Below are positions 983 through 11,746 of a DNA stretch of 64,000 nt, one piece after another. Position numbers and translations under genes: made by a program. Where the stretch lies: the NCBI RefSeq assembly GCF_011045215.1, contig NZ_CP049201.1. One strand, 5' to 3'. This stretch comes from Escherichia coli. GTDB lineage: Bacteria > Pseudomonadota > Gammaproteobacteria > Enterobacterales > Enterobacteriaceae. The notes below the pieces were generated by a model. That model saw only the letters and a list, made by a program, of their open reading frames with translations, did no database searches and had not been told where the DNA came from. Within the stretch, counting starts at the first letter, position 1; each line of letters opens with the position of its first letter.

Positions 983-1196
983 ATTTTCGTTATGCCCTGG
1001 GCCCTAAGTGTATCAAAAACAGCAAGGCCCAAGGCAAAAGCACTGATAGCGTCTGCTTCATTGCCCCAAAAATAGAGAGGTTTCAGTCCTACATTATTAA
1101 TGAATTTTTTGCATAAGTGATATCAAAATCCACATACTAATTTGAGGTTACGTTTTAACGTAGACTCATTGTTCATGCTTAATGGAGGGACTGACA

Positions 1197-2066
1197 GTGG
1201 AATTTTCCGTATTAAGTAACAATCTGAAAATGCCGATGATGGGATTTGGTGTTTTTCAGGTTACCGATAAAAACGTGTGCAAACAGTCAGTGTTGAACGC
1301 TATCCGCACGGGTTATCGACTCATCGACACTGCAGCGGTATACGGTAATGAAGATGCTGTCGGTGAAGCCGTTCGTGAAGCCATATCCGAAGGTTTATGT
1401 ACCCGAGAAGAGTTATTTATAACGTCTAAATTGTGGGTGCAGGATATGTTGAATCAGGATACGGCAGCAGCAGGTATTGAAGCATCATTAAAAAAATCGG
1501 GACTAGAATACTTCGACCTCTATTTATTGCATCAGGCTATGCGCGATTATTTCAGTGCGTGGCGTGCACTCGAAGATGCCTATGAAGAGGGCAAATTAAA
1601 AGCGATTGGGGTTTCCAATTTCTATCCTCATGTTCTGGCGAACTTTTGTGAAACGGTAAGAGTTAAACCGATGGTCAACCAGGTCGAGTTGCATCCCTAT
1701 TTTGCCCAACCAGAGGCACTGGCAACCATGAAGTATTATAACGTGCAGCCTGAAGCATGGGCTCCGTTAGGTGGTGGACGACATAAACCCTTTGAAAATA
1801 ATCTGCTTCAGAGTATTGCAGATGCCCATCAAAAATCGATTTCTCAAGTCATTCTGCGTTGGAATATTCAACGGGGAGTGGTCGTTATTCCGAAATCGAC
1901 ACATCAACAGCGTATCGAAGAAAATTTTGCTATCTGGGATTTCTCACTGACAGAGAAAGAAATGGCACAAATTAGTTCGCTTGATTTGGGTTATGTTGGA
2001 GAGTCGGTAAAACATTTTAATCCTGAATTTGTTCGTGGTTGTCTTGCTGTAAAAATACATGATTGA
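1197..2066 (+). CDS. Aldo/keto reductase family oxidoreductase (2,5-diketo-D-gluconate reductase-like)
   Basis: ORF 1182..2066; AKR hallmarks (GYRLIDTAAVYGNE, LHQ, IPKS). Start placed at GTG 1197 (MEFSVLSNNLKMPMMGFGVF) because GGAGGG lies 7 nt upstream. Confidence 0.8.
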   Translation: MEFSVLSNNLKMPMMGFGVFQVTDKNVCKQSVLNAIRTGYRLIDTAAVYGNEDAVGEAVREAISEGLCTREELFITSKLWVQDMLNQDTAAAGIEASLKKSGLEYFDLYLLHQAMRDYFSAWRALEDAYEEGKLKAIGVSNFYPHVLANFCETVRVKPMVNQVELHPYFAQPEALATMKYYNVQPEAWAPLGGGRHKPFENNLLQSIADAHQKSISQVILRWNIQRGVVVIPKSTHQQRIEENFAIWDFSLTEKEMAQISSLDLGYVGESVKHFNPEFVRGCLAVKIHD

Positions 2067-2225
2067 TATTAATCATGTATTTTACCTGAGACGACAAGAA
2101 TCTTTTAACAGGGGAGTGATATTGATCTTCACTCTGTCATATCTCAGGTAATATGGCGTCAGGCTTCATCATCAGAAAGGGGGCCTGACGCCTGAAAAAG
2201 TGAACAACAGACAGTGTTCGGATTA

Positions 2226-2819
2226 TCAATATTCAGTTTTTAACGTTGAACTGGATTCATTACTGCGTTGTTTAAGAATTTCCCGCGCCGAATCTGCCAT
2301 TATCATGACAGCACCTGCCAGCATCAGAGTATCTTTCAATACCAGACGACCAGCACCGGATAAATAAGGGAAACCATGATGAGCGTCACCCAATGCGGGT
2401 ACCCATGCCTCCGGGGTGGTGATTAAAAATGAGAGTGTTACCAACGGTGTGGTAAATGCCATCAGCCCTCCCAATAAACCTAACCAGCGATTGACAGGAT
2501 TAGCCAAAACCAGCAGAGCAATAATCACCTCCACGACGCCAAGACCGTTGGAAAAACCATAGGTATTATTGGCCGATTGCCATGCCCTTGCTTCTGGTTT
2601 GTATTCGCCTTCGTGAGTCAGATACTGTTTATAGTCTTCCGGGTGTTCATAAAAGAACGACATTAGTGGACTGTTTGCGACGAATGGTGTAATGCTGTCT
2701 GCCTCGTAAGGGACAAACTTTAATAACCCAATCCACATAAAAACAATCGCAATACTCAGACGAATCAATGTCAGGCCAATTTTATCTCCCCGACTTAACA
2801 GGTGCAGGTATTTTTCCAT
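2226..2819 (-). CDS. rclC: Inner-membrane protein RclC (DUF417), reactive chlorine resistance
   Basis: ORF 2226..2828; start taken at internal ATG (MEKYLHLLSRGDKIGL...) with AGGA 8 nt upstream, giving 197 aa as in RclC/YkgB; hydrophobic segments. Confidence 0.9.
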   Translation of the reverse strand: MEKYLHLLSRGDKIGLTLIRLSIAIVFMWIGLLKFVPYEADSITPFVANSPLMSFFYEHPEDYKQYLTHEGEYKPEARAWQSANNTYGFSNGLGVVEVIIALLVLANPVNRWLGLLGGLMAFTTPLVTLSFLITTPEAWVPALGDAHHGFPYLSGAGRLVLKDTLMLAGAVMIMADSAREILKQRSNESSSTLKTEY

Positions 2820-2830
2820 TGTGAACATCC

Positions 2831-3067
2831 TTATTTATACAATACTGCTGTTGCGGTTGAATTATTATCAATTCGCATCGATGTGACTTTCCAGGATGAA
2901 GCATTATATTTTCTGGCTATATCAGCAATGGCATCCTCCAGAACTGTCGGTGATGCTGATACTGACGAGACGCTGATATGTTTCAGAATTATTTTATCAT
3001 CTGCATTGGTGGAAAATGCCATAACGCCAGATAATAGTGTTGCAAATAAAACGGATTTTTTAAACAT
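2831..3067 (-). CDS. rclB: Small periplasmic protein RclB (DUF1471/YkgI family) with signal peptide
   Basis: ORF 2831..3082; start at ATG 3067 (MFKKSVLFATLLSGVMAFSTNA = signal peptide), 78 aa. Confidence 0.85.
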   Translation of the reverse strand: MFKKSVLFATLLSGVMAFSTNADDKIILKHISVSSVSASPTVLEDAIADIARKYNASSWKVTSMRIDNNSTATAVLYK

Positions 3068-3175
3068 ATAAAATACCATCAATGAAGTGATTAAGAAGTT
3101 ATAGAGTAACAGGGAATTAATAAGATTCTTTTCTCTGAGACGCCAGAATATTTGTTCTGGCGTCTGATTTTGAGT

Positions 3176-4501
3176 TTATTTGACTAATGAAAATAGATCA
3201 TTGAGTGATTCGCTCATCGACGGATGAGTAAATATCTGATCGCGTAATATGCTATAAGGCAGCCCGGCATCCATCACCATTTTCACTATATTAATCATCT
3301 CGTGGGAGTCAACACACAGCAGTGATGCCCCTAATATACGTTGGGTTTTATTATCAACAATCGCTTTTAATACCCCACGGGTATCGTTCATCACTCTGGC
3401 GCGCGGAATTGCAGCTACAGGCAATGTCACCACCTGAATATCAGCACCACTCTCTCTGGCTTGTTCTTCTGTCATACCAACCCTGGATAGGGGCGGTGTC
3501 ATAAATACGGAATAAGGCACATTTTTCCGATCATCAGTACTACGTTTGCCTTCACCCAGTAACTCATCACGTACAATGCGGTAATCATCCAGTGATATGT
3601 AAGTAAATTGCAGCCCGCCGGTAACATCTCCCATCGCCCAAATATTGTCTGCGGTGGTATGTAATCGCTTGTCAACGACAATTGCCCCGCGCTCGTTTAC
3701 TGCGATACCGGCATTTTCTGGATGTAACGAAGCGGTAGCCGGTTGACGACCGGAAGCTATTAACAGTGCATCCACCGCCAGTTGGGCGTGCTCGCTATGC
3801 ACTTGCACTTGATTTTCATGGTGACTGATTCGCTCCACATGGGCATTGAGGATAATATCGACGCCCTGATCGCGTAAAATCGTCGCGATATTATCAGCAA
3901 TATCCCGTTCTTCCCGAGGCAAAAACAGTGAAGCTGCTTCTAAAATGGTTACCTTGCTGCCAAAATTAGCGAACATAGAGGCGAACTCAACGCCAATATA
4001 TCCGCCGCCCAAAATACCTAAATGCCCAGGCAATTCTTTTAGATTAAGTAATCCGGTGCTGTCATATACTCCTGGCGTGGTGGTAATTCCAGTAATTGGC
4101 GGAACCACGGTTTGTGCACCGGTATTAATAAAAATTTTCTCGCCATGAATTTCCAGATTTCCCTCAGGCCGATGAACACGCAGGCTATGATTATTGATAA
4201 ACTCCGCCTGGCCGTCGATCACGTCGATATTGGGCATATCCGCAAGATTATGAAAATTCTTATTACGTAAAAAATTAACCACTTCATTTTTACGCTGTAT
4301 GGCACGGACAAAATCTGTGTGCTGCTGTGCGTCATGAACCAATGTTTTGGTTGGGATGCAGCCGATATTAATACAGGTCCCGCCATACATTGCATTTGAT
4401 TGTTCGATGAGAGCCACTCGCCAACCTGCTTTTGCCAGCGTGACGGCTAATGTTTTTCCAGCCTTGCCAAAACCAATAATCACTGCCTGATATTTATTCA
4501 T
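3176..4501 (-). CDS. rclA: RclA, FAD-dependent pyridine nucleotide-disulfide oxidoreductase
   Basis: ORF 3176..4528; start at ATG 4501 (MNKYQAVIIGFGKAGKT, Rossmann GxGxxG), 441 aa; redox-active CxxxxC motif (GGTCINIGCIPTK). Confidence 0.95.
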   Translation of the reverse strand: MNKYQAVIIGFGKAGKTLAVTLAKAGWRVALIEQSNAMYGGTCINIGCIPTKTLVHDAQQHTDFVRAIQRKNEVVNFLRNKNFHNLADMPNIDVIDGQAEFINNHSLRVHRPEGNLEIHGEKIFINTGAQTVVPPITGITTTPGVYDSTGLLNLKELPGHLGILGGGYIGVEFASMFANFGSKVTILEAASLFLPREERDIADNIATILRDQGVDIILNAHVERISHHENQVQVHSEHAQLAVDALLIASGRQPATASLHPENAGIAVNERGAIVVDKRLHTTADNIWAMGDVTGGLQFTYISLDDYRIVRDELLGEGKRSTDDRKNVPYSVFMTPPLSRVGMTEEQARESGADIQVVTLPVAAIPRARVMNDTRGVLKAIVDNKTQRILGASLLCVDSHEMINIVKMVMDAGLPYSILRDQIFTHPSMSESLNDLFSLVK

Positions 4502-4726
4502 GATGATTTCCTGTCGAAACGCGTTCATTTGACATCATGACTATAGACGCAAAAGAGCAAATAACATTTCTTCACAACGCTTGATATTTTGTCTTATCGT
4601 CTGGTATTTTCTTTTTCTTAATCAGAATCACAAAACAAAAATCATGATTAACTATTTGATGGTATTAGATTAGTTATTTACTAAGATTGTTGGTGTTTGT
4701 AATCAAAAACCACTCAGGAGTCTGAT
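4502..4726. promoter_or_regulatory. Divergent rclA / rclR intergenic control region (AT-rich)
   Basis: 225-bp AT-rich spacer between divergently transcribed rclA and rclR; AGGAG RBS at 4715-4719 for rclR. Individual promoter elements not resolved. Confidence 0.5.
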
Positions 4727-5581
4727 ATGGATGCCCTTAGCCGTTTGTTGATGCTTAACGCTCCACAAGGAACGATCGATAAGAATTGCGTGTTAGGAAG
4801 TGACTGGCAGCTTCCACATGGTGCCGGGGAATTATCGGTTATTCGTTGGCATGCGTTAACGCAAGGAGCGGCGAAGCTGGAAATGCCGACGGGGGAGATT
4901 TTTACATTACGCCCGGGAAATGTGGTCCTGCTACCACAAAATTCAGCCCATCGCCTGAGTCATGTCGATAATGAATCAACCTGTATTGTCTGCGGCACTC
5001 TTCGGCTGCAACATTCGGCGCGTTATTTTTTAACGTCTTTGCCGGAAACGCTGTTTTTAGCACCGGTTAACCACAGCGTAGAATATAACTGGCTGAGGGA
5101 GGCGATCCCGTTTTTACAACAGGAATCCAGATTGGCAATGCCGGGAGTGGATGCACTGTGTAGCCAGATCTGCGCTACATTCTTTACCCTCGCGGTGCGT
5201 GAGTGGATTGCACAGGTTAATACTGAGAAAAACATTCTCAGTTTGCTTCTGCATCCACGTCTTGGTGCGGTAATACAGCAAATGTTGGAAATGCCAGGAC
5301 ACGCCTGGACCGTCGAATCGCTGGCCAGCATCGCCCACATGTCCCGGGCAAGTTTTGCCCAGCTTTTCCGTGATGTTTCCGGAACCACGCCGCTGGCTGT
5401 ATTAACAAAGTTGCGTCTACAAATAGCGGCCCAGATGTTTTCCCGGGAAACGCTCCCTGTTGTGGTGATCGCTGAGTCAGTAGGCTATGCCAGTGAATCA
5501 TCTTTTCACAAGGCGTTTGTCCGCGAGTTTGGTTGTACTCCGGGAGAATATCGGGAAAGGGTCAGACAGCTTGCACCCTGA
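4727..5581 (+). CDS. rclR: RclR, AraC-family redox-sensing activator of rclABC
   Basis: 284-aa ORF, AraC HTH at the C-terminus (SIAHMSRASFAQLFRDVSGTTP...ESVGYASESSFHKAFVREFGCTP); divergent from rclA. Confidence 0.95.
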   Translation: MDALSRLLMLNAPQGTIDKNCVLGSDWQLPHGAGELSVIRWHALTQGAAKLEMPTGEIFTLRPGNVVLLPQNSAHRLSHVDNESTCIVCGTLRLQHSARYFLTSLPETLFLAPVNHSVEYNWLREAIPFLQQESRLAMPGVDALCSQICATFFTLAVREWIAQVNTEKNILSLLLHPRLGAVIQQMLEMPGHAWTVESLASIAHMSRASFAQLFRDVSGTTPLAVLTKLRLQIAAQMFSRETLPVVVIAESVGYASESSFHKAFVREFGCTPGEYRERVRQLAP

Positions 5582-6107
5582 ATAAAACCGCCAGAAATCA
5601 GGGCAAAGATAATCCGCATTCCGGGAGTTGTGAGCCTTTCAACTATTTCTATTTCCAACGGTGGTTTGGGCTTTATATATTTTTTTCTGATGGACTCTAG
5701 CTCAGTTTTTAAATAAAAATGCAAACTAAATTGTTTCAATTAAATAAAATCCCGACTATTACTTGATACGTGATTATTGTCGGTGATTTTTTTGTACACC
5801 ATCAGTGTATATCTCAACAACCCCTGAATAAGTAGCTCTGAATAGGTATAAGGGATGTAGCCATTTTTAAATGGATTTCTTATGCCAAAAATGATCGTCG
5901 ATTTCCCCATAAAATGTGAGCGATGCCGAAAGAAATAAAATTAGTTATTGCATTTGACGTTTGGATGAAAGATTATCATTTGTCATACAAATGAGGGGTG
6001 GTATGTTGCTAGCCAATTAAAAAAGAACGCCATATTTATTGATGATTGATCCCCCGGTGGGGGGAAACATCGGGCATAAATGGGCATGAAGTAATGGAGT
6101 ATTAGTT

Positions 6108-6827
6108 GTGAATGTCAATTTCTTTGTCACCTGTATTGGTGACGCCCTGAAATCAAGAATGGCACGAGACTCCGTGCTGCTACTGGAAAAACTCGGCTGT
6201 CGCGTAAATTTCCCGGAGAAACAGGGATGCTGCGGTCAGCCTGCGATCAATAGTGGTTATATCAAAGAAGCGATTCCAGGGATGAAAAATCTGATCGCCG
6301 CACTGGAGGATAACGACGATCCCATTATTTCACCGGCTGGCTCTTGCACCTATGCCGTAAAAAGTTACCCGACGTATCTGGCGGATGAACCTGAATGGGC
6401 ATCACGAGCCGAAAAGGTTGCCGCGCGTATGCAGGATCTCACCTCTTTTATTGTTAATAAATTAGGGGTAGTCGATGTAGGTGCCAGTTTGCAAGGGAGA
6501 GCGGTGTATCACCCATCTTGTAGCCTGGCCCGTAAGCTGGGGGTGAAGGACGAACCACTTACGCTGCTGAAAAATGTGCGTGGACTGGAGCTGTTGACCT
6601 TTGCTGAACAGGATACCTGCTGCGGATTTGGCGGCACGTTCTCGGTCAAAATGGCCGAAATATCCGGCGAGATGGTGAAAGAAAAGGTTGCGCACCTGAT
6701 GGAAGTCCGCCCTGAGTATTTAATAGGTGCTGACGTGAGTTGCCTGCTGAACATCAGTGGGCGATTACAACGGGAAGGGCAGAAAGTCAAAGTGATGCAT
6801 ATTGCTGAAGTGTTGATGAGCCGCTGA
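6108..6827 (+). CDS. ykgE: LutA-like cysteine-rich (CCG-domain) Fe-S oxidoreductase subunit
   Basis: 239-aa ORF from GTG 6108; two CCG motifs (KQGCCGQ, DTCCGFGG); first gene of ykgEFG. Confidence 0.9.
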   Translation: MNVNFFVTCIGDALKSRMARDSVLLLEKLGCRVNFPEKQGCCGQPAINSGYIKEAIPGMKNLIAALEDNDDPIISPAGSCTYAVKSYPTYLADEPEWASRAEKVAARMQDLTSFIVNKLGVVDVGASLQGRAVYHPSCSLARKLGVKDEPLTLLKNVRGLELLTFAEQDTCCGFGGTFSVKMAEISGEMVKEKVAHLMEVRPEYLIGADVSCLLNISGRLQREGQKVKVMHIAEVLMSR

Positions 6828-6837
6828 GGGTATAAAG

Positions 6838-8265
6838 ATGTCGATCAAAACCAGTAATACAGATTTTAAGACACGCATCCGTCAGCAAATTGAAGATCCG
6901 ATCATGCGCAAAGCGGTGGCAAACGCGCAGCAGCGTATTGGGGCAAATCGGCAAAAAATGGTCGATGAATTGGGGCACTGGGAGGAGTGGCGCGATCGGG
7001 CCGCCCAGATACGTGATCATGTTCTGAGTAATCTCGACGCTTATCTGTACCAGCTCTCAGAAAAAGTGACGCAAAACGGCGGTCACGTCTATTTTGCAAA
7101 AACCAAAGAAGACGCTACCCGCTACATTTTACAGGTTGCCCAACGCAAAAATGCCCGGAAGGTGGTGAAATCTAAATCGATGGTGACCGAAGAGATTGGT
7201 ATCAATCATGTGTTGCAGGATGCTGGCATTCAGGTGATTGAAACCGATCTGGGTGAATATATTCTCCAGCTGGATCAAGATCCGCCATCTCATGTTGTGG
7301 TCCCGGCAATTCATAAAGATCGCCATCAGATCCGTCGAGTGCTACACGAACGTCTGGGCTATGAGGGGCCGGAAACGCCTGAAGCGATGACCTTATTCAT
7401 CCGGCAAAAAATCCGCGAAGATTTCCTCAGTGCTGAAATAGGTATTACCGGCTGTAATTTCGCGGTGGCAGAGACAGGTTCGGTATGCCTGGTGACCAAT
7501 GAAGGTAATGCGCGAATGTGTACCACGCTGCCTAAAACGCATATTGCAGTGATGGGAATGGAGCGTATTGCCCCCACGTTTGCCGAGGTAGATGTATTGA
7601 TCACCATGCTGGCGCGCAGTGCCGTTGGTGCACGTTTGACGGGATACAACACCTGGCTGACAGGACCGCGCGAAGCGGGGCACGTTGATGGTCCTGAAGA
7701 GTTTCATCTGGTTATTGTCGATAACGGGCGTTCTGAGGTGCTGGCCTCTGAATTTCGGGATGTGCTGCGCTGTATTCGCTGCGGGGCTTGTATGAATACT
7801 TGTCCGGCATATCGCCATATTGGCGGTCATGGATATGGCTCTATTTATCCAGGGCCAATTGGTGCGGTGATTTCTCCGCTACTTGGCGGCTATAAAGATT
7901 TTAAAGATTTACCCTACGCCTGCTCTTTATGCACAGCTTGTGACAACGTGTGTCCAGTGCGTATTCCGCTGTCAAAACTGATTTTGCGTCATCGTCGGGT
8001 GATGGCTGAAAAAGGGATCACCGCAAAAGCAGAGCAACGGGCGATAAAAATGTTCGCTTATGCCAATAGTCATCCAGGATTGTGGAAAGTCGGGATGATG
8101 GCCGGCGCTCATGCGGCAAGCTGGTTTATCAATGGCGGCAAAACACCACTCAAATTTGGCGCGATTAGCGACTGGATGGAAGCACGCGATCTTCCTGAAG
8201 CTGACGGAGAGAGTTTCCGTAGTTGGTTTAAGAAACATCAGGCGCAGGAGAAAAAGAATGGATAA
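6838..8265 (+). CDS. ykgF: LutB-like 4Fe-4S ferredoxin-domain electron transport protein
   Basis: 475-aa ORF; two CxxCxxCxxxCP ferredoxin motifs (CIRCGACMNTCP, CSLCTACDNVCP). Confidence 0.9.
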   Translation: MSIKTSNTDFKTRIRQQIEDPIMRKAVANAQQRIGANRQKMVDELGHWEEWRDRAAQIRDHVLSNLDAYLYQLSEKVTQNGGHVYFAKTKEDATRYILQVAQRKNARKVVKSKSMVTEEIGINHVLQDAGIQVIETDLGEYILQLDQDPPSHVVVPAIHKDRHQIRRVLHERLGYEGPETPEAMTLFIRQKIREDFLSAEIGITGCNFAVAETGSVCLVTNEGNARMCTTLPKTHIAVMGMERIAPTFAEVDVLITMLARSAVGARLTGYNTWLTGPREAGHVDGPEEFHLVIVDNGRSEVLASEFRDVLRCIRCGACMNTCPAYRHIGGHGYGSIYPGPIGAVISPLLGGYKDFKDLPYACSLCTACDNVCPVRIPLSKLILRHRRVMAEKGITAKAEQRAIKMFAYANSHPGLWKVGMMAGAHAASWFINGGKTPLKFGAISDWMEARDLPEADGESFRSWFKKHQAQEKKNG

Positions 8266-8953
8266 TCGAGGCGAATTTTTGAATAACGTTGCTCAGGCAC
8301 TGGGTCGCCCGCTGCGACTTGAACCGCAAGCAGAAGATGCGCCGCTTAACAACTATGCTAACGAGCGGCTTACCGAACTTAACCAACAGCAGCGCTGTGA
8401 CGCGTTTATTCAGTTTGCCAGCGATGTTATGTTGACGCGCTGTGAACTGACCAGCGAGGCGAAGGCGGCAGAAGCTGCAATACGACTGTGTAAAGAGCTG
8501 GGAGATCAGTCGGTCGTGATTAGCGGTGACACGAGGCTGGAGGAATTAGGGATTAGCGAACGTTTGCAGCAGGAATGCAATGCCGTTGTTTGGGATCCGG
8601 CGAAAGGTGCCGAGAATATCTCGCAGGCAGAGCAGGCTAAAGTGGGTGTCGTGTATGCTGAATATGGTTTAACCGAATCGGGAGGCGTGGTTCTTTTTTC
8701 CGCCGCCGAGCGTGGGCGTTCATTGAGCCTGCTCCCGGAATCATCTCTTTTTATCCTGCGTAAAAGCACTATTCTGCCGCGTGTAGCGCAACTCGCAGAA
8801 AGATTGCATCAGAAAGCGCAGGCCGGTGAACGCATGCCGTCATGTATTAACATCATCAGTGGTCCCAGCTCAACGGCGGACATTGAGCTTATCAAAGTCG
8901 TCGGGGTTCATGGTCCGGTGAAAGCGGTGTATCTGATTATTGAGGATTGCTGA
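8258..8953 (+). CDS. ykgG: LutC-like protein (LUD domain)
   Basis: ORF 8111..8953; start set at ATG 8258 (MDNRGEFLNNVAQALGRP), 231 aa, overlapping the ykgF stop by 8 nt (ATGGATAA). Confidence 0.85.
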   Translation: MDNRGEFLNNVAQALGRPLRLEPQAEDAPLNNYANERLTELNQQQRCDAFIQFASDVMLTRCELTSEAKAAEAAIRLCKELGDQSVVISGDTRLEELGISERLQQECNAVVWDPAKGAENISQAEQAKVGVVYAEYGLTESGGVVLFSAAERGRSLSLLPESSLFILRKSTILPRVAQLAERLHQKAQAGERMPSCINIISGPSSTADIELIKVVGVHGPVKAVYLIIEDC

Positions 8954-9059
8954 GAGAGGTATGAAGTCTGGACATAAACCTGAAGAAGGCATACGAGGTT
9001 GAAAATAGCGTTAAGGACAACCTGACTTAACCCCGTTCCGTCATGGTTATGCTCCTCTT

Positions 9060-9100
9060 CTGTAAATATCCTGGCATTAGTAATGCCAGGATATTTACAG
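9060..9100. repeat. Perfect 41-bp palindrome (20-bp arms) between convergent ykgG and ykgH
   Basis: ctgtaaatatcctggcatta g taatgccaggatatttacag read directly; no U-tract on either side, so not a canonical intrinsic terminator. Confidence 0.7.
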
Positions 9101-9195
9101 TGAAAAAGACAGGCATCCATTCCTGAAAACGGGTTCCCTTCCCGGTCATTGTCACTTCAGCTTTATACAGGCACTCTCTATCAGAATGCTGTTTA

Positions 9196-9864
9196 TTACT
9201 GCCCAGAGTTTTGTTGGTATTCATCTACCATTTTTTTGACAAGGCAAAACATTACAGAAATTACAATGCTTATAAAAAATCCCAGAGCTAGGTAAATGGC
9301 AGCAGGGTATTTATTTTTTATTTCTGGTGAGCTTATAGTTACACAGCCATCACCGTTTGGATACAATGACCAGTTCCTGGTCAGGTATATCATTTTTGTA
9401 TAAAGCTCACTGTTAATTGCTGAAGGCGTTTGTATCTCATCGAGAACTTGCCTGCCATTATGGTATTCTGACGCATACCATTTGATAATAGACGCCTGCA
9501 CGTGAGATATTTCCGCTTCAGCAGTTGGTAAATCTCTCTTATCTCCTGACCATTCCAGCTTTATTTCTCTGTTCTTGACATCTGGGCTGGTGTGAAAAAA
9601 TGTAGTAATTCGCTGAATAACATCTTCAGTCATTGTGGTCTGACAGGCAAAGTTATTATTGCTATCACAGTTAACAAGTATACCTGGCGTTGTCTGGTTT
9701 ATTTTTAGGCTGTAAATCACTTTTATATTGTCTTTATTGATATACAGAAACAACAGCACCATAGCCATACATATAGCCATAATAAAAAGGATAACACGAA
9801 TCTTTTTCTTCAGATAAAATAAAATCTCAATCAGATCGATATCCTGTTTGATTTGTTCACTCAT
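9196..9864 (-). CDS. ykgH: Inner-membrane protein YkgH (one N-terminal and one C-terminal hydrophobic segment)
   Basis: 222-aa AT-rich ORF; hydrophobic stretches at residues ~22-42 and ~190-210. Confidence 0.85.
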   Translation of the reverse strand: MSEQIKQDIDLIEILFYLKKKIRVILFIMAICMAMVLLFLYINKDNIKVIYSLKINQTTPGILVNCDSNNNFACQTTMTEDVIQRITTFFHTSPDVKNREIKLEWSGDKRDLPTAEAEISHVQASIIKWYASEYHNGRQVLDEIQTPSAINSELYTKMIYLTRNWSLYPNGDGCVTISSPEIKNKYPAAIYLALGFFISIVISVMFCLVKKMVDEYQQNSGQ

Positions 9865-10057
9865 AATATATCCAGAAAATAAAATCTGCCGCAGATAAAT
9901 GAATTAATAGTCTGTATCAGGAATGTTCGGGTTAAATATCAGCAAAAAGCCAGCATCATGAATACTGGATATGAAGCATGAGAGTTACCTCAGTGTTTAT
10001 ATAAGGATTCGGCCCCCCTCTCTGGAACGGTAACTCTCAATCTGATCGGTTCCTGCG

Positions 10058-11746
10058 TTAGTTCACATCACGACTCATTTTTTTCGCTCTCACCGGCATC
10101 CCATTTGCCACAAAATATCCCGCCGTGCTCCTCGGCAACGCTTCCTGTCCACGAATCATGTCCGCTATTTTCTCGCCAATCATAATTGTCGTGGCGTTCA
10201 AATTCCCGGTGATAATCTGCGGCATAATTGACGCATCCACCACGCGCAGGCCTTCCAGCCCATGCACGCGGCCTTCGCCGTCAACCACGGACATCTCGTC
10301 GTAGCCCATTTTGCAGGTACCGCACGGATGGAAGGCGGTTTCGGCGTGATTACGCACGAACTCATCGAGCTGCTCATCCGTCTGACATTCCGTGCCGGGG
10401 CTGATTTCGCGGCCACGATACTGATCCAGCGCTGGTTGATGCATGATCTCGCGGGTGATGCGAATTGCGTCGCGGAACTCCTGCCAGTCCTGCTCGTGCG
10501 ACATGTAGTTAAACAGAATCGCCGGATGCTGGTGCGGGTCGCGGGATTTAATCCGCACATGCCCACGGCTTGGCGAGCGCATCGATCCGACGTGGCACTG
10601 GAAGCCGTGCTCTTTCACTGCATTCGAGCCGTTATAGTTAATCGCTACTGGCAGGAAATGGTACTGAATATTCGGCCACGCAAATTCCTCTCGGCTGCGA
10701 ATAAATCCGCCTGCTTCAAAGTGGTTGCTGGCACCAACGCCGGTGCCGCCAAACAGCCACTCCGCACCGATTTTCGGCTGATTCCACCACTGCAGGGCAG
10801 GGTAGAGGGAAACCGGTTCTTTGCACTCATATTGCAGATACATCTCCAGGTGATCCTGAAGATTTTCGCCGACGCCGGGTAAATCATGCACCAGCGGAAT
10901 ATCAAACTCCGCCAGCAGTTCAGCGCTACCCACGCCGGAACGTTGCAGGATCTGCGGAGAGGCGATCGCACCTGCACATAACAGCACCTCTTTATTCGCT
11001 GTCGCGCGGGTTGGAATGGTGCTGTCGCCTTCCTGCCACTCGACGCCCACCGCGCGTTTGCCGTCAAAAATGATGTGATCGGTCATAGCGTGAGTACGAA
11101 TGGTCAGGTTAGGGCGCGATTTGGCCTGATCGAGATAACCGCGCGCGGTACTGGCGCGACGGCCCTGCGGCGTGACGGTGCGATCCATCGGGCCAAAACC
11201 TTCCTGCTGATAGCCGTTGAGATCGTCCGTGCGCGGGTAGCCTGCCTGCACGCCCGCTTCAATCATCGCTTCAAACAGCGGATTGACGCCGGGTTTGGAG
11301 GTGGTGACGCTCACCGGGCCATCACCGCCGTGATAGTCGTTATCACCAATATCGCGCGTCTCGGCCTTGCGATAGTAGGGCAGGCAATCGAGATAGCTCC
11401 AGTTCTCCAGGCCGGGTTCTTTCGCCCAGTTGTCGAGATCCAGCGCGTTGCCACGGATGTAGCACATGCCGTTGATCAGCGACGATCCACCCAGGCCTTT
11501 ACCGCGTCCGCACTCCATGCGGCGGTTATTCATAAACGGTTCAGGTTCCGTTTCATAGGCCCAGTTGTAGCGTTTACCCTGTAGCGGGAATGCCAGGGCA
11601 GCGGGCATCTGGGTGCGGAAGTCAAAGCGATAGTCCGGGCCGCCCGCTTCAAGCAGCAGCACGGAGGTATTCGGATCTTCAGTCAGACGGGTAGCGAGAA
11701 CGTTGCCGGCTGAGCCGGCACCAATAATGATGTAGTCAAATTGCAA
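10058..11746 (-). CDS. betA: Choline dehydrogenase (GMC oxidoreductase, FAD)
   Basis: ORF 10058..11791; N-terminal FAD fold [18 protein letters not shown]. The position matching the canonical N-terminus (xQFDYIIIG) is TTG here, 5 nt after AGGAGG. C-terminus ...[10 protein letters not shown]. Confidence 0.9.

Follow-up and report, generated by a model that had tools for sequence, protein, structure and literature searches.

Lactate is a major host- and microbiota-derived source of carbon and electrons in the inflamed gut, and of the three respiratory lactate dehydrogenases of Escherichia coli the one encoded by ykgEFG is the least understood. What do these three genes make, on which substrate does the product act, and how is its expression held in check? 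We took up these questions in a 64,000-nucleotide stretch of E. coli DNA (contig NZ_CP049201.1, hereafter the window), in which ykgE, ykgF and ykgG lie between rclR and ykgH. Our analysis leads to the conclusion that ykgEFG very probably encodes a three-subunit iron-sulfur (Fe-S) L-lactate dehydrogenase, soluble or peripheral and without a flavin domain, which is repressed by YieP, raised by FNR and acts as a back-up to LldD. The operon is already described as a LutABC/LldEFG operon, and its substrate and promoter architecture are largely published. Our additions are modest: the placement of the operator relative to a conserved promoter, the conservation of this operator as far as Proteus, and the origin of most of the 526-bp upstream region in the adjoining rcl block. 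The family-level question is how LUD and CCG domains oxidize lactate without flavin, and on the enzyme itself the window adds nothing new.

The protein sequences place the three genes in the LutABC family. YkgF scored 778.9 bits against the NCBIfam LutB/LldF equivalog model TIGR00273 (cut-off 444.8), covering model positions 1-432 of 432. Pfam identified three domains in this protein, all above their cut-offs: LUD_dom (PF02589, E = 1.9e-52), Fer4_8 (PF13183, 2.1e-14) and LutB_C (PF11870, also DUF3390, 7.7e-10). Two CxxCxxCxxxC motifs for [4Fe-4S] clusters are present at Cys 312-322 and 362-372. YkgE contains two CCG stretches (PF02754 twice, E = 2.9e-34, 117.5 bits), with cysteines at positions 9, 31, 41, 42 and 80 and at 138, 171, 172 and 212, the CCG motifs falling at Cys41-42 and Cys171-172; its residues 5-216 are a distant match to HdrB in the Protein Data Bank (PDB 5odc_B). 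In YkgG, whose homologues are labelled LutC, YkgG or LldG in different sources, LUD_dom is the sole Pfam domain (PF02589, 9.8e-31, 107 bits). YkgG also matched the only solved LutC-like structure, D. radiodurans LutC (PDB 2g40, E = 1.4e-9), and its C-terminal GVHGP (His218) aligns with the histidine proposed to be catalytic in that structure, while the neighbouring arginine is not kept. Within NCBIfam, no curated LutA-specific model reached its cut-off for YkgE and no model matched YkgG.

Taken together, the window holds a LutB equivalog with the LutB architecture, a two-CCG LutA and a LUD-only LutC, co-oriented in the order A-B-C. An earlier note, made from the sequence of the window alone, had assigned the genes to the LutABC type in this order, and the Pfam domains, the TIGR00273 score and the synteny in relatives described below bear it out. 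Its description of a CCG protein and a LUD protein also stands; the term double-ferredoxin protein for YkgF was incomplete, as the N-terminal 290 residues of YkgF are a LUD domain. Pfam detected no flavin-binding or nicotinamide adenine dinucleotide (NAD)-binding domain in any of the three proteins and no partner gene for binding flavin adenine dinucleotide within the unit. No transmembrane segment was found in any subunit (maximum 19-residue hydropathy 1.0-1.4). The K-12 RefSeq record names ykgF a 'putative amino acid dehydrogenase with NAD(P)-binding domain and ferridoxin-like domain' (L002 4839-6266); this product name is outdated, because Pfam supports no NAD(P) domain.

The three genes form a real, intact and conserved operon and not a chance pattern. 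The coordinates given for them in the earlier note agree exactly with the open reading frame (ORF) list and the raw sequence. The layout of the locus, rclC-rclB-rclA (minus strand), rclR, ykgE-F-G (plus strand), ykgH and betA (minus strand), is identical to that of E. coli K-12 MG1655, from which YkgE, YkgF and YkgG differ by 1, 2 and 3 residues, respectively. Among 5426 complete E. coli genomes, 5132 contain the 3.6-kb stretch at a coverage of at least 80% (best identity 99.5%). To extend the comparison, we scanned for YkgF using one genome per species and obtained 80 loci at 71-99% identity, spanning Escherichia, Citrobacter, Pectobacterium, Serratia, Edwardsiella, Proteus, Pasteurellaceae and others. 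The order E-F-G was found in all 78 loci with sequence, across Enterobacterales and Pasteurellaceae. When the window was compared with E. whittamii, nucleotide identity was 91% and amino-acid identity 94-98%, which indicates purifying selection. A separate search for YkgG homologues returned Enterobacterales exclusively among its best 120 matches.

The junctions between the genes are conserved too. The GTG start of ykgE is shared by 33 related loci, and ykgE is separated from the ykgF ATG by 10 nt, a distance that ranged from -10 to +13 nt over all 78 loci. The 8-nt overlap claimed for ykgF and ykgG is real: the TAA of ykgF occupies 8263-8265 and the ATG of ykgG 8258-8260, which together give ATGGATAA, and the AGGAG Shine-Dalgarno sequence lies 7 nt before this ATG. 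In the ORF list the ykgG frame opens at 8111; the annotated ATG at 8258 is the one that is conserved in relatives and preceded by AGGAG. Overlaps of 8, 4 or 1 nt between F and G were seen in 51 of 78 loci, the gap was never larger than 32 nt, and a purine-rich Shine-Dalgarno sequence within the last codons of ykgF recurs across the related loci. Because the junctions are short in all 78 loci, the tight stop-start geometry is a conserved property of the unit. This geometry supports, without proving, the translational coupling that the earlier note had put forward.

The earlier note held that the substrate in E. coli cannot be read from the sequence. The genomic context in relatives is more informative than this and points to lactate. 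Upstream sequence of 2 kb or more was available for 72 related loci, and 50 of these carry a lactate permease gene (PF02652, verified by Pfam on five representatives) directly upstream of ykgE; 40 of these genes are co-directional at a distance of 53-242 nt, and the 10 divergent ones belong to nine Citrobacter and one Tenebrionibacter. The Escherichia locus, in the window as in other Escherichia species, has no neighbour for lactate transport or metabolism, and the neighbours in the window are rclR and ykgH.

Published phenotypes agree with this assignment. In E. coli MP1, a murine commensal, deletion of ykgEFG caused a competitive defect during anaerobic growth on L-lactate with nitrate and none with D-lactate (PMC9701030). 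Growth and respiration of a ykgEFG deletion on lactate had been suggested as a check on the assignment, with the lack of any 2-hydroxy-acid oxidation phenotype as the outcome that would speak against it; part of this work is thus published, and the outcome was a defect on L-lactate with nitrate. The same study found LldD to be dominant aerobically and in mouse colitis models (PMC9701030). Furthermore, YkgEFG is credited, jointly with LldD and Dld, with the oxidation of 2,4-dihydroxybutyrate (Malfoy 2024, as cited in PMC13279387), and in strains engineered against lactate consumption ykgF has been deleted alongside lldD, dld and glcD. The homologous enzyme of C. jejuni has been described as a non-flavin Fe-S, NAD-independent L-lactate dehydrogenase.

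Expression of the operon is governed by a repressor site placed immediately behind a conserved promoter. YieP, a repressor of the GntR/FCD family, was shown to hold ykgEFG down, since deletion of yieP derepressed the operon about 10-fold in the study that also defined the YieP motif by ChIP-exo (chromatin immunoprecipitation with exonuclease) (PMC7642389). In Reg-Seq experiments mass spectrometry and a knockout identified YieP at the ykgE promoter, its site lay downstream of the RNA polymerase footprint, and the promoter was classed as having one activator (FNR) and one repressor (PMC7567609). Thus the promoter mapping called for in the earlier note is already available from Reg-Seq and ChIP-exo (PMC7567609, PMC7642389).

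In the window, the sequence ATTTGTCATACAAAT, with half-sites ATTTGT and ACAAAT around a central CAT, corresponds base for base to the reverse complement of the ChIP-exo motif atTTGTaTGAcaAAT (PMC7642389), and no other site in the 64 kb comes within 2 mismatches of this motif. The box starts 1 nt after the -10 element of a probable sigma-70 promoter, TTGCAT-17-GATTAT, whose two hexamers and spacing are identical in the window, in K-12 and in three further species of Escherichia and ten of Citrobacter, with a spacer of variable sequence. Across this Escherichia and Citrobacter comparison the box begins 1-4 nt after the -10. The placement of the conserved TTGCAT/GATTAT elements agrees with the Reg-Seq site for YieP downstream of RNA polymerase. 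From this placement we infer a transcription start near 5983, which would give a 5' untranslated region (5'UTR) of about 125 nt. A box with 0-1 mismatch precedes ykgE in Escherichia, Citrobacter, Leminorella and five Proteus species, and in Leminorella and Proteus it sits in otherwise unalignable DNA. No homologue of YieP or LldR was found adjacent to ykgEFG in the 80 related loci.

A second promoter candidate, TTGTCA(5980)-16-TATGTT(6007) with an extended -10, came from a consensus scan and was rejected. In sister Escherichia species its spacing is about 20 nt as judged by eye, and it is also ruled out by the Reg-Seq position of YieP and by the perfect conservation of TTGCAT-17-GATTAT. Scanning 5582-6130 for FNR, CRP, ArcA and NarL boxes returned a single item, a CRP-like half-site TGTGA at 5915.

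These observations, together with the published data, are consistent with the following model. L-lactate and, more loosely, related 2-hydroxy acids would be oxidized to the 2-keto acid, pyruvate in the case of lactate, at the paired LUD domains of the YkgF N-terminus and YkgG. From there electrons would travel by way of the two [4Fe-4S] clusters in YkgF to the CCG clusters of YkgE, which resemble those of HdrB, GlpC and GlcF, and on to quinone, and the quinone pool would in turn supply nitrate reductase or an oxidase. The three frames would be read from a single transcript, and their abutting and overlapping ends probably keep the amounts of the subunits matched. Transcription would start from the weak promoter at 5948-5976 and be blocked by YieP bound at 5978-5992 across the start site, with FNR bringing about a rise in expression under anaerobic conditions. 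In this scheme the enzyme would be a conditional back-up to LldD that matters mainly in anaerobic (nitrate) respiration. Repression by YieP combined with an anaerobic rise fits a phenotype confined to nitrate respiration.

Several points weigh against an L-lactate dehydrogenase controlled in this way. The ykgEFG deletion was without phenotype in aerobic culture, under anaerobic conditions when nitrate was omitted, and in two mouse models of colitis (PMC9701030), and according to a second-hand citation of Chai et al. 2009 no lactate phenotype was reportedly seen in K-12. Overexpression left lactate titres unchanged, the H. pylori homologue is reportedly NAD-dependent and thus discrepant within the family, and the E. 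coli locus has neither a lactate permease nor a lactate-responsive regulator. At the promoter, the consensus scan missed TTGCAT/GATTAT and counted no more sites than in shuffled sequence. No FNR consensus match at 2 or fewer mismatches was found in 5582-6130, and so the published activation by FNR could not be assigned to a site. At the level of the enzyme, no structure of a LutABC complex is present in the PDB, where the nearest solved proteins are the HdrB and HdrC subunits (E about 1e-4). To our knowledge, the E. coli YkgEFG enzyme has never been purified. The HdrB motif, which we take to have five cysteines per CCG domain, compares with four in YkgE, and for this reason the type of cluster carried by YkgE is uncertain.

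The alternative that survives best is that the main substrate is not L-lactate but other 2- or 3-hydroxy acids, or a broad range of them, the operon being part of a YieP-controlled regulon for hydroxy-acid stress and utilization and L-lactate just one of the compounds accepted by a promiscuous enzyme. We regard this as improbable. YieP does co-repress ykgEFG and yohJK, which encodes a transporter for 3-hydroxypropionate tolerance (PMC7642389), and the contribution of YkgEFG to 2,4-dihydroxybutyrate oxidation, as cited above, would fit such a role; however, deletion of ykgEFG left 3-hydroxypropionate tolerance unaltered, and this tolerance was attributed to yohJK (PMC7642389). Likewise, E. coli lacks at this locus the permease of most relatives, whether by loss or from the outset, and L-lactate is already covered by LldD, with the ykgEFG deletion lacking a gut phenotype (PMC9701030). 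Opposed to this are the stereospecific fitness defect on L-lactate under nitrate respiration (PMC9701030), the linkage to a lactate permease in 50 of 72 relatives and the presence of dld beside the operon in one Citrobacter (L016, described below).

It is less probable still that ykgEFG is a largely silent leftover, redundant with LldD, kept off by YieP and of no significant present function. None of the three frames is broken, purifying selection acts on them in Escherichia, Citrobacter and further relatives, the promoter, operator and junctions are conserved, and second copies have been acquired even on plasmids. These facts, and the measurable phenotype on L-lactate with nitrate (PMC9701030), stand against the roughly 10-fold repression in laboratory conditions (PMC7642389), the lack of a phenotype in most conditions tested, and the approximately 5% of complete E. 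coli genomes that have no intact copy.

The remaining alternative concerns the region upstream of ykgE, which the earlier note had called a 526-bp leader. The length is correct, as the rclR stop is at 5581 and ykgE starts at 6108, and the spacer is as long in K-12. The region is not a leader, since the promoter and operator lie at 5948-5992 and the distal 329 bp belong to the rcl block. In blastn comparisons, window positions 5911-8956 aligned at 89-91% identity with the loci of E. whittamii (L003), Escherichia sp. E1V33 (L004) and 'E. coli' SCPM-O-B-8794 (L005), and homology ended at 5911. The block 2061-5910, comprising rclC, rclB, rclA, rclR and the 329 bp, has no counterpart in these three loci; upstream of ykgE they carry instead, at a distance of about 500 nt, the aldo/keto reductase gene that occupies window positions 1182-2066. 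Because homology in the sister species resumes at this gene, the block represents an insertion or a deletion relative to them, and on alignment evidence the reactive-chlorine resistance cluster rclCBA-rclR looks like such an event beside ykgEFG. The distal part gave no Rfam match, and nothing is annotated there in K-12 or in other genomes. The entire 526-bp region is single-copy in E. coli genomes.

That the 526 bp act as a long structured leader or regulatory RNA, such as a riboswitch or attenuator controlling ykgEFG, is hardly credible: the unusually long intergenic distance and a G/C hairpin in the 5'UTR would favour it, but Rfam, run over both strands of 4500-10100, gave nothing credible (only a spurious miRNA match at E <= 1), the 5'UTR folds no better than shuffled sequences (z = -0.5), the distal 329 bp are missing in sister Escherichia species, and Citrobacter aligns by blastn only over the last ~22 nt before ykgE, with a box-to-start distance that varies from 136 to 223 nt. 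The conserved promoter and operator, moreover, lie only about 130-160 nt upstream of ykgE. The hairpin just mentioned, CCCCCGGTGGGGGG, is found at 6050-6063 in the inferred 5'UTR, and its G-run differs in length by 1 nt from that of K-12.

A flavin-free, YieP-repressed L-lactate dehydrogenase in E. coli can be compared with several known systems. The closest is LutABC of Bacillus subtilis (YvfV-YvfW-YvbY), which has the same three proteins in the same order, namely a two-CCG LutA, a LutB with LUD, two [4Fe-4S] motifs and LutB_C, and a LUD-only LutC, and which is needed for L-lactate use. Similarly, it is controlled by a GntR-family repressor at an inverted-repeat operator downstream of the promoter, as is YieP at ykgE. 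In contrast to YieP, the repressor LutR is linked to its system, is released by L-lactate and recognizes TCATC-N1-GATGA; the E. coli operon is served by an unlinked YieP with the box ATTTGTCATACAAAT, and YieP, itself a GntR/FCD protein, is not a close relative of LutR. The permease gene lutP is regulated with the B. subtilis operon, whereas the E. coli locus has none, and unlike LutABC the E. coli enzyme is redundant with LldD.

LldEFG of Shewanella oneidensis (SO_1520-1518) and Cj0075c-0073c of Campylobacter jejuni are three-gene units of the same family. Their products are NAD-independent, non-flavin Fe-S L-lactate dehydrogenases that feed the respiratory chain, with the same stereospecificity for L-lactate as in E. 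coli. In these two organisms, however, they are a main L-lactate route, while the E. coli operon has a phenotype only under nitrate respiration. LldEFG of C. necator is 34, 40 and 31% identical to YkgE, YkgF and YkgG.

The Fe-S pair also has a fused counterpart. LdhH of sulfate reducers (NF045670) is the large subunit of a quinone-dependent L-lactate dehydrogenase in which LutB and LutA are joined, and the E. coli proteins tile its model end to end, YkgF covering positions 2-464 (427 bits) and YkgE 468-705 (185 bits). This tiling indicates that the E. coli pair is a split form of the LdhH module. Unlike LdhH, the pair consists of two polypeptides, each below the 800-bit cut-off, and has an additional LUD subunit, YkgG. 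More distantly, the CCG domains and the two-[4Fe-4S] domain of HdrBC, GlcF and GlpC are homologous to YkgE and to the ferredoxin module of YkgF. In GlcF and GlpC, such modules link a dehydrogenase to the quinone pool by electron transfer. The E. coli proteins are not of GlcF/GlpC type, with scores far under the cut-offs (GlcF 100.4 against 333; GlpC 80 against 278 and 61 against 280; HdrB 27 against 345), and the partners in those systems are flavoproteins or a heterodisulfide site and not LUD domains. Finally, LldD of the E. coli lldPRD operon performs the same overall reaction in a respiratory role in the same cell, yet it is an unrelated single subunit with flavin mononucleotide, is induced by lactate through LldR and has a permease in its operon.

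The distribution of the operator raises a further, tentative possibility. The YieP box is kept before ykgE in Escherichia, Citrobacter, Leminorella and Proteus and once before a dld-ykgEFG cluster, and thus YieP may sense L-lactate, pyruvate or another small hydroxy acid. We consider it conceivable but on balance unlikely that YieP served ancestrally as the hydroxy-acid sensor of the lutABC operon in enterobacteria. If true, sensing by YieP would join ykgEFG, the yohJK exporter and membrane remodelling through rydC/cfa in one organic-acid response, and it would open a tractable genetic route to expression and purification of the flavin-free LutABC enzyme.

Table 1. Positions of the ykgEFG genes, their junctions and the flanking control elements in the window.
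Feature	Coordinates	Strand	Remarks
Distal AT-rich part of the intergenic region	5582..5910	+	329 bp; in the rclCBA-rclR block, outside the ykgE unit
Proximal part of the intergenic region, travels with ykgE	5911..6107	+	197 bp; promoter, operator, 5'UTR and GGAG Shine-Dalgarno at 6096-6099
Probable sigma-70 promoter of ykgEFG	5948..5976	+	-35 TTGCAT 5948-5953, 17-nt spacer, -10 GATTAT 5971-5976
YieP (GntR/FCD-family repressor) operator, ATTTGTCATACAAAT	5978..5992	+	15/15 motif match
ykgE (lutA/lldE-type subunit)	6108..6827	+	239 aa, GTG start; in the ORF list
ykgE-ykgF junction	6826..6840	+	TGA stop 6825-6827 overlaps GAGGG Shine-Dalgarno 6826-6830
ykgF (lutB/lldF-type subunit)	6838..8265	+	475 aa; LUD, two 4Fe-4S motifs and LutB_C
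ykgF stop/ykgG start overlap, ATGGATAA	8258..8265	+	8 nt; AGGAG 8246-8250 inside ykgF
ykgG (lutC/lldG-type subunit)	8258..8953	+	231 aa, single LUD domain
Perfect 20-bp inverted repeat, CTGTAAATATCCTGGCATTA / TAATGCCAGGATATTTACAG	9060..9100	.	between convergent ykgG and ykgH; 100% complementary

Among the relatives, individual loci depart from the common arrangement. On a 47.5-kb contig of Citrobacter sp. Res13-Sevr-PEB04-36 (L016 185-4923), the YieP box lies at 185-195, and next come a D-lactate dehydrogenase gene at 252-1949 (PF09330 and PF01565) and ykgEFG, in this order. This would be a combined operon for D- and L-lactate oxidation behind a YieP operator; a similar cluster, lctP-dld-ykgEFG, has been reported from plasmid pFec10. 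In Chimaeribacter arupi (L038 3526-3969), a gene of the glyoxalase family takes the place of the permease directly upstream of ykgE, a neighbour that may link the operon to lactate derived from methylglyoxal.

Some genomes contain more than one version of the operon. Samsonia erythrinae DSM 16730 has two diverged copies of ykgEFG, one with an upstream permease (L027, 84% YkgF identity) and one without (L046, 75%). Loci from different Kosakonia species are split in the same manner, L022 (87%) having the permease and L045, L047 and L049 (~75%) lacking it. In the scan of E. coli genomes, the second place recorded per genome corresponded to diverged second ykgEFG copies, some of them on plasmids, and 29 places were plasmid-borne. 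We rejected the idea that these second places reflect a mobile repeat, as the upstream region is single-copy and the palindrome downstream of ykgG is locus-specific. Two E. coli protein clusters, P0076 and P0079, are 65-67% identical to YkgG.

The folding energy of this palindrome is -29 to -33 kcal/mol whichever strand is taken, and the sequence is present once in E. coli genomes; the K-12 copy differs at three positions near the loop and keeps the stem. There is no U-tract at 9060-9100, and the repeat therefore falls short of an intrinsic terminator. The repeat could be a two-way transcript-end hairpin or a protein-binding palindrome.

Beyond it, ykgH (9196-9864, minus strand) encodes 222 aa that matched no Pfam family above cut-off (DUF6520 only weakly) and no NCBIfam model. 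The gene is absent from the sister Escherichia loci, whose homology ends at 8956, and its product differs from that of K-12 by 8 amino acids, far above its neighbours. In O157:H16 Santai, ykgH is followed by the autotransporter gene hyxB (L001 7469-9616), in place of the betA found in the window and in K-12.

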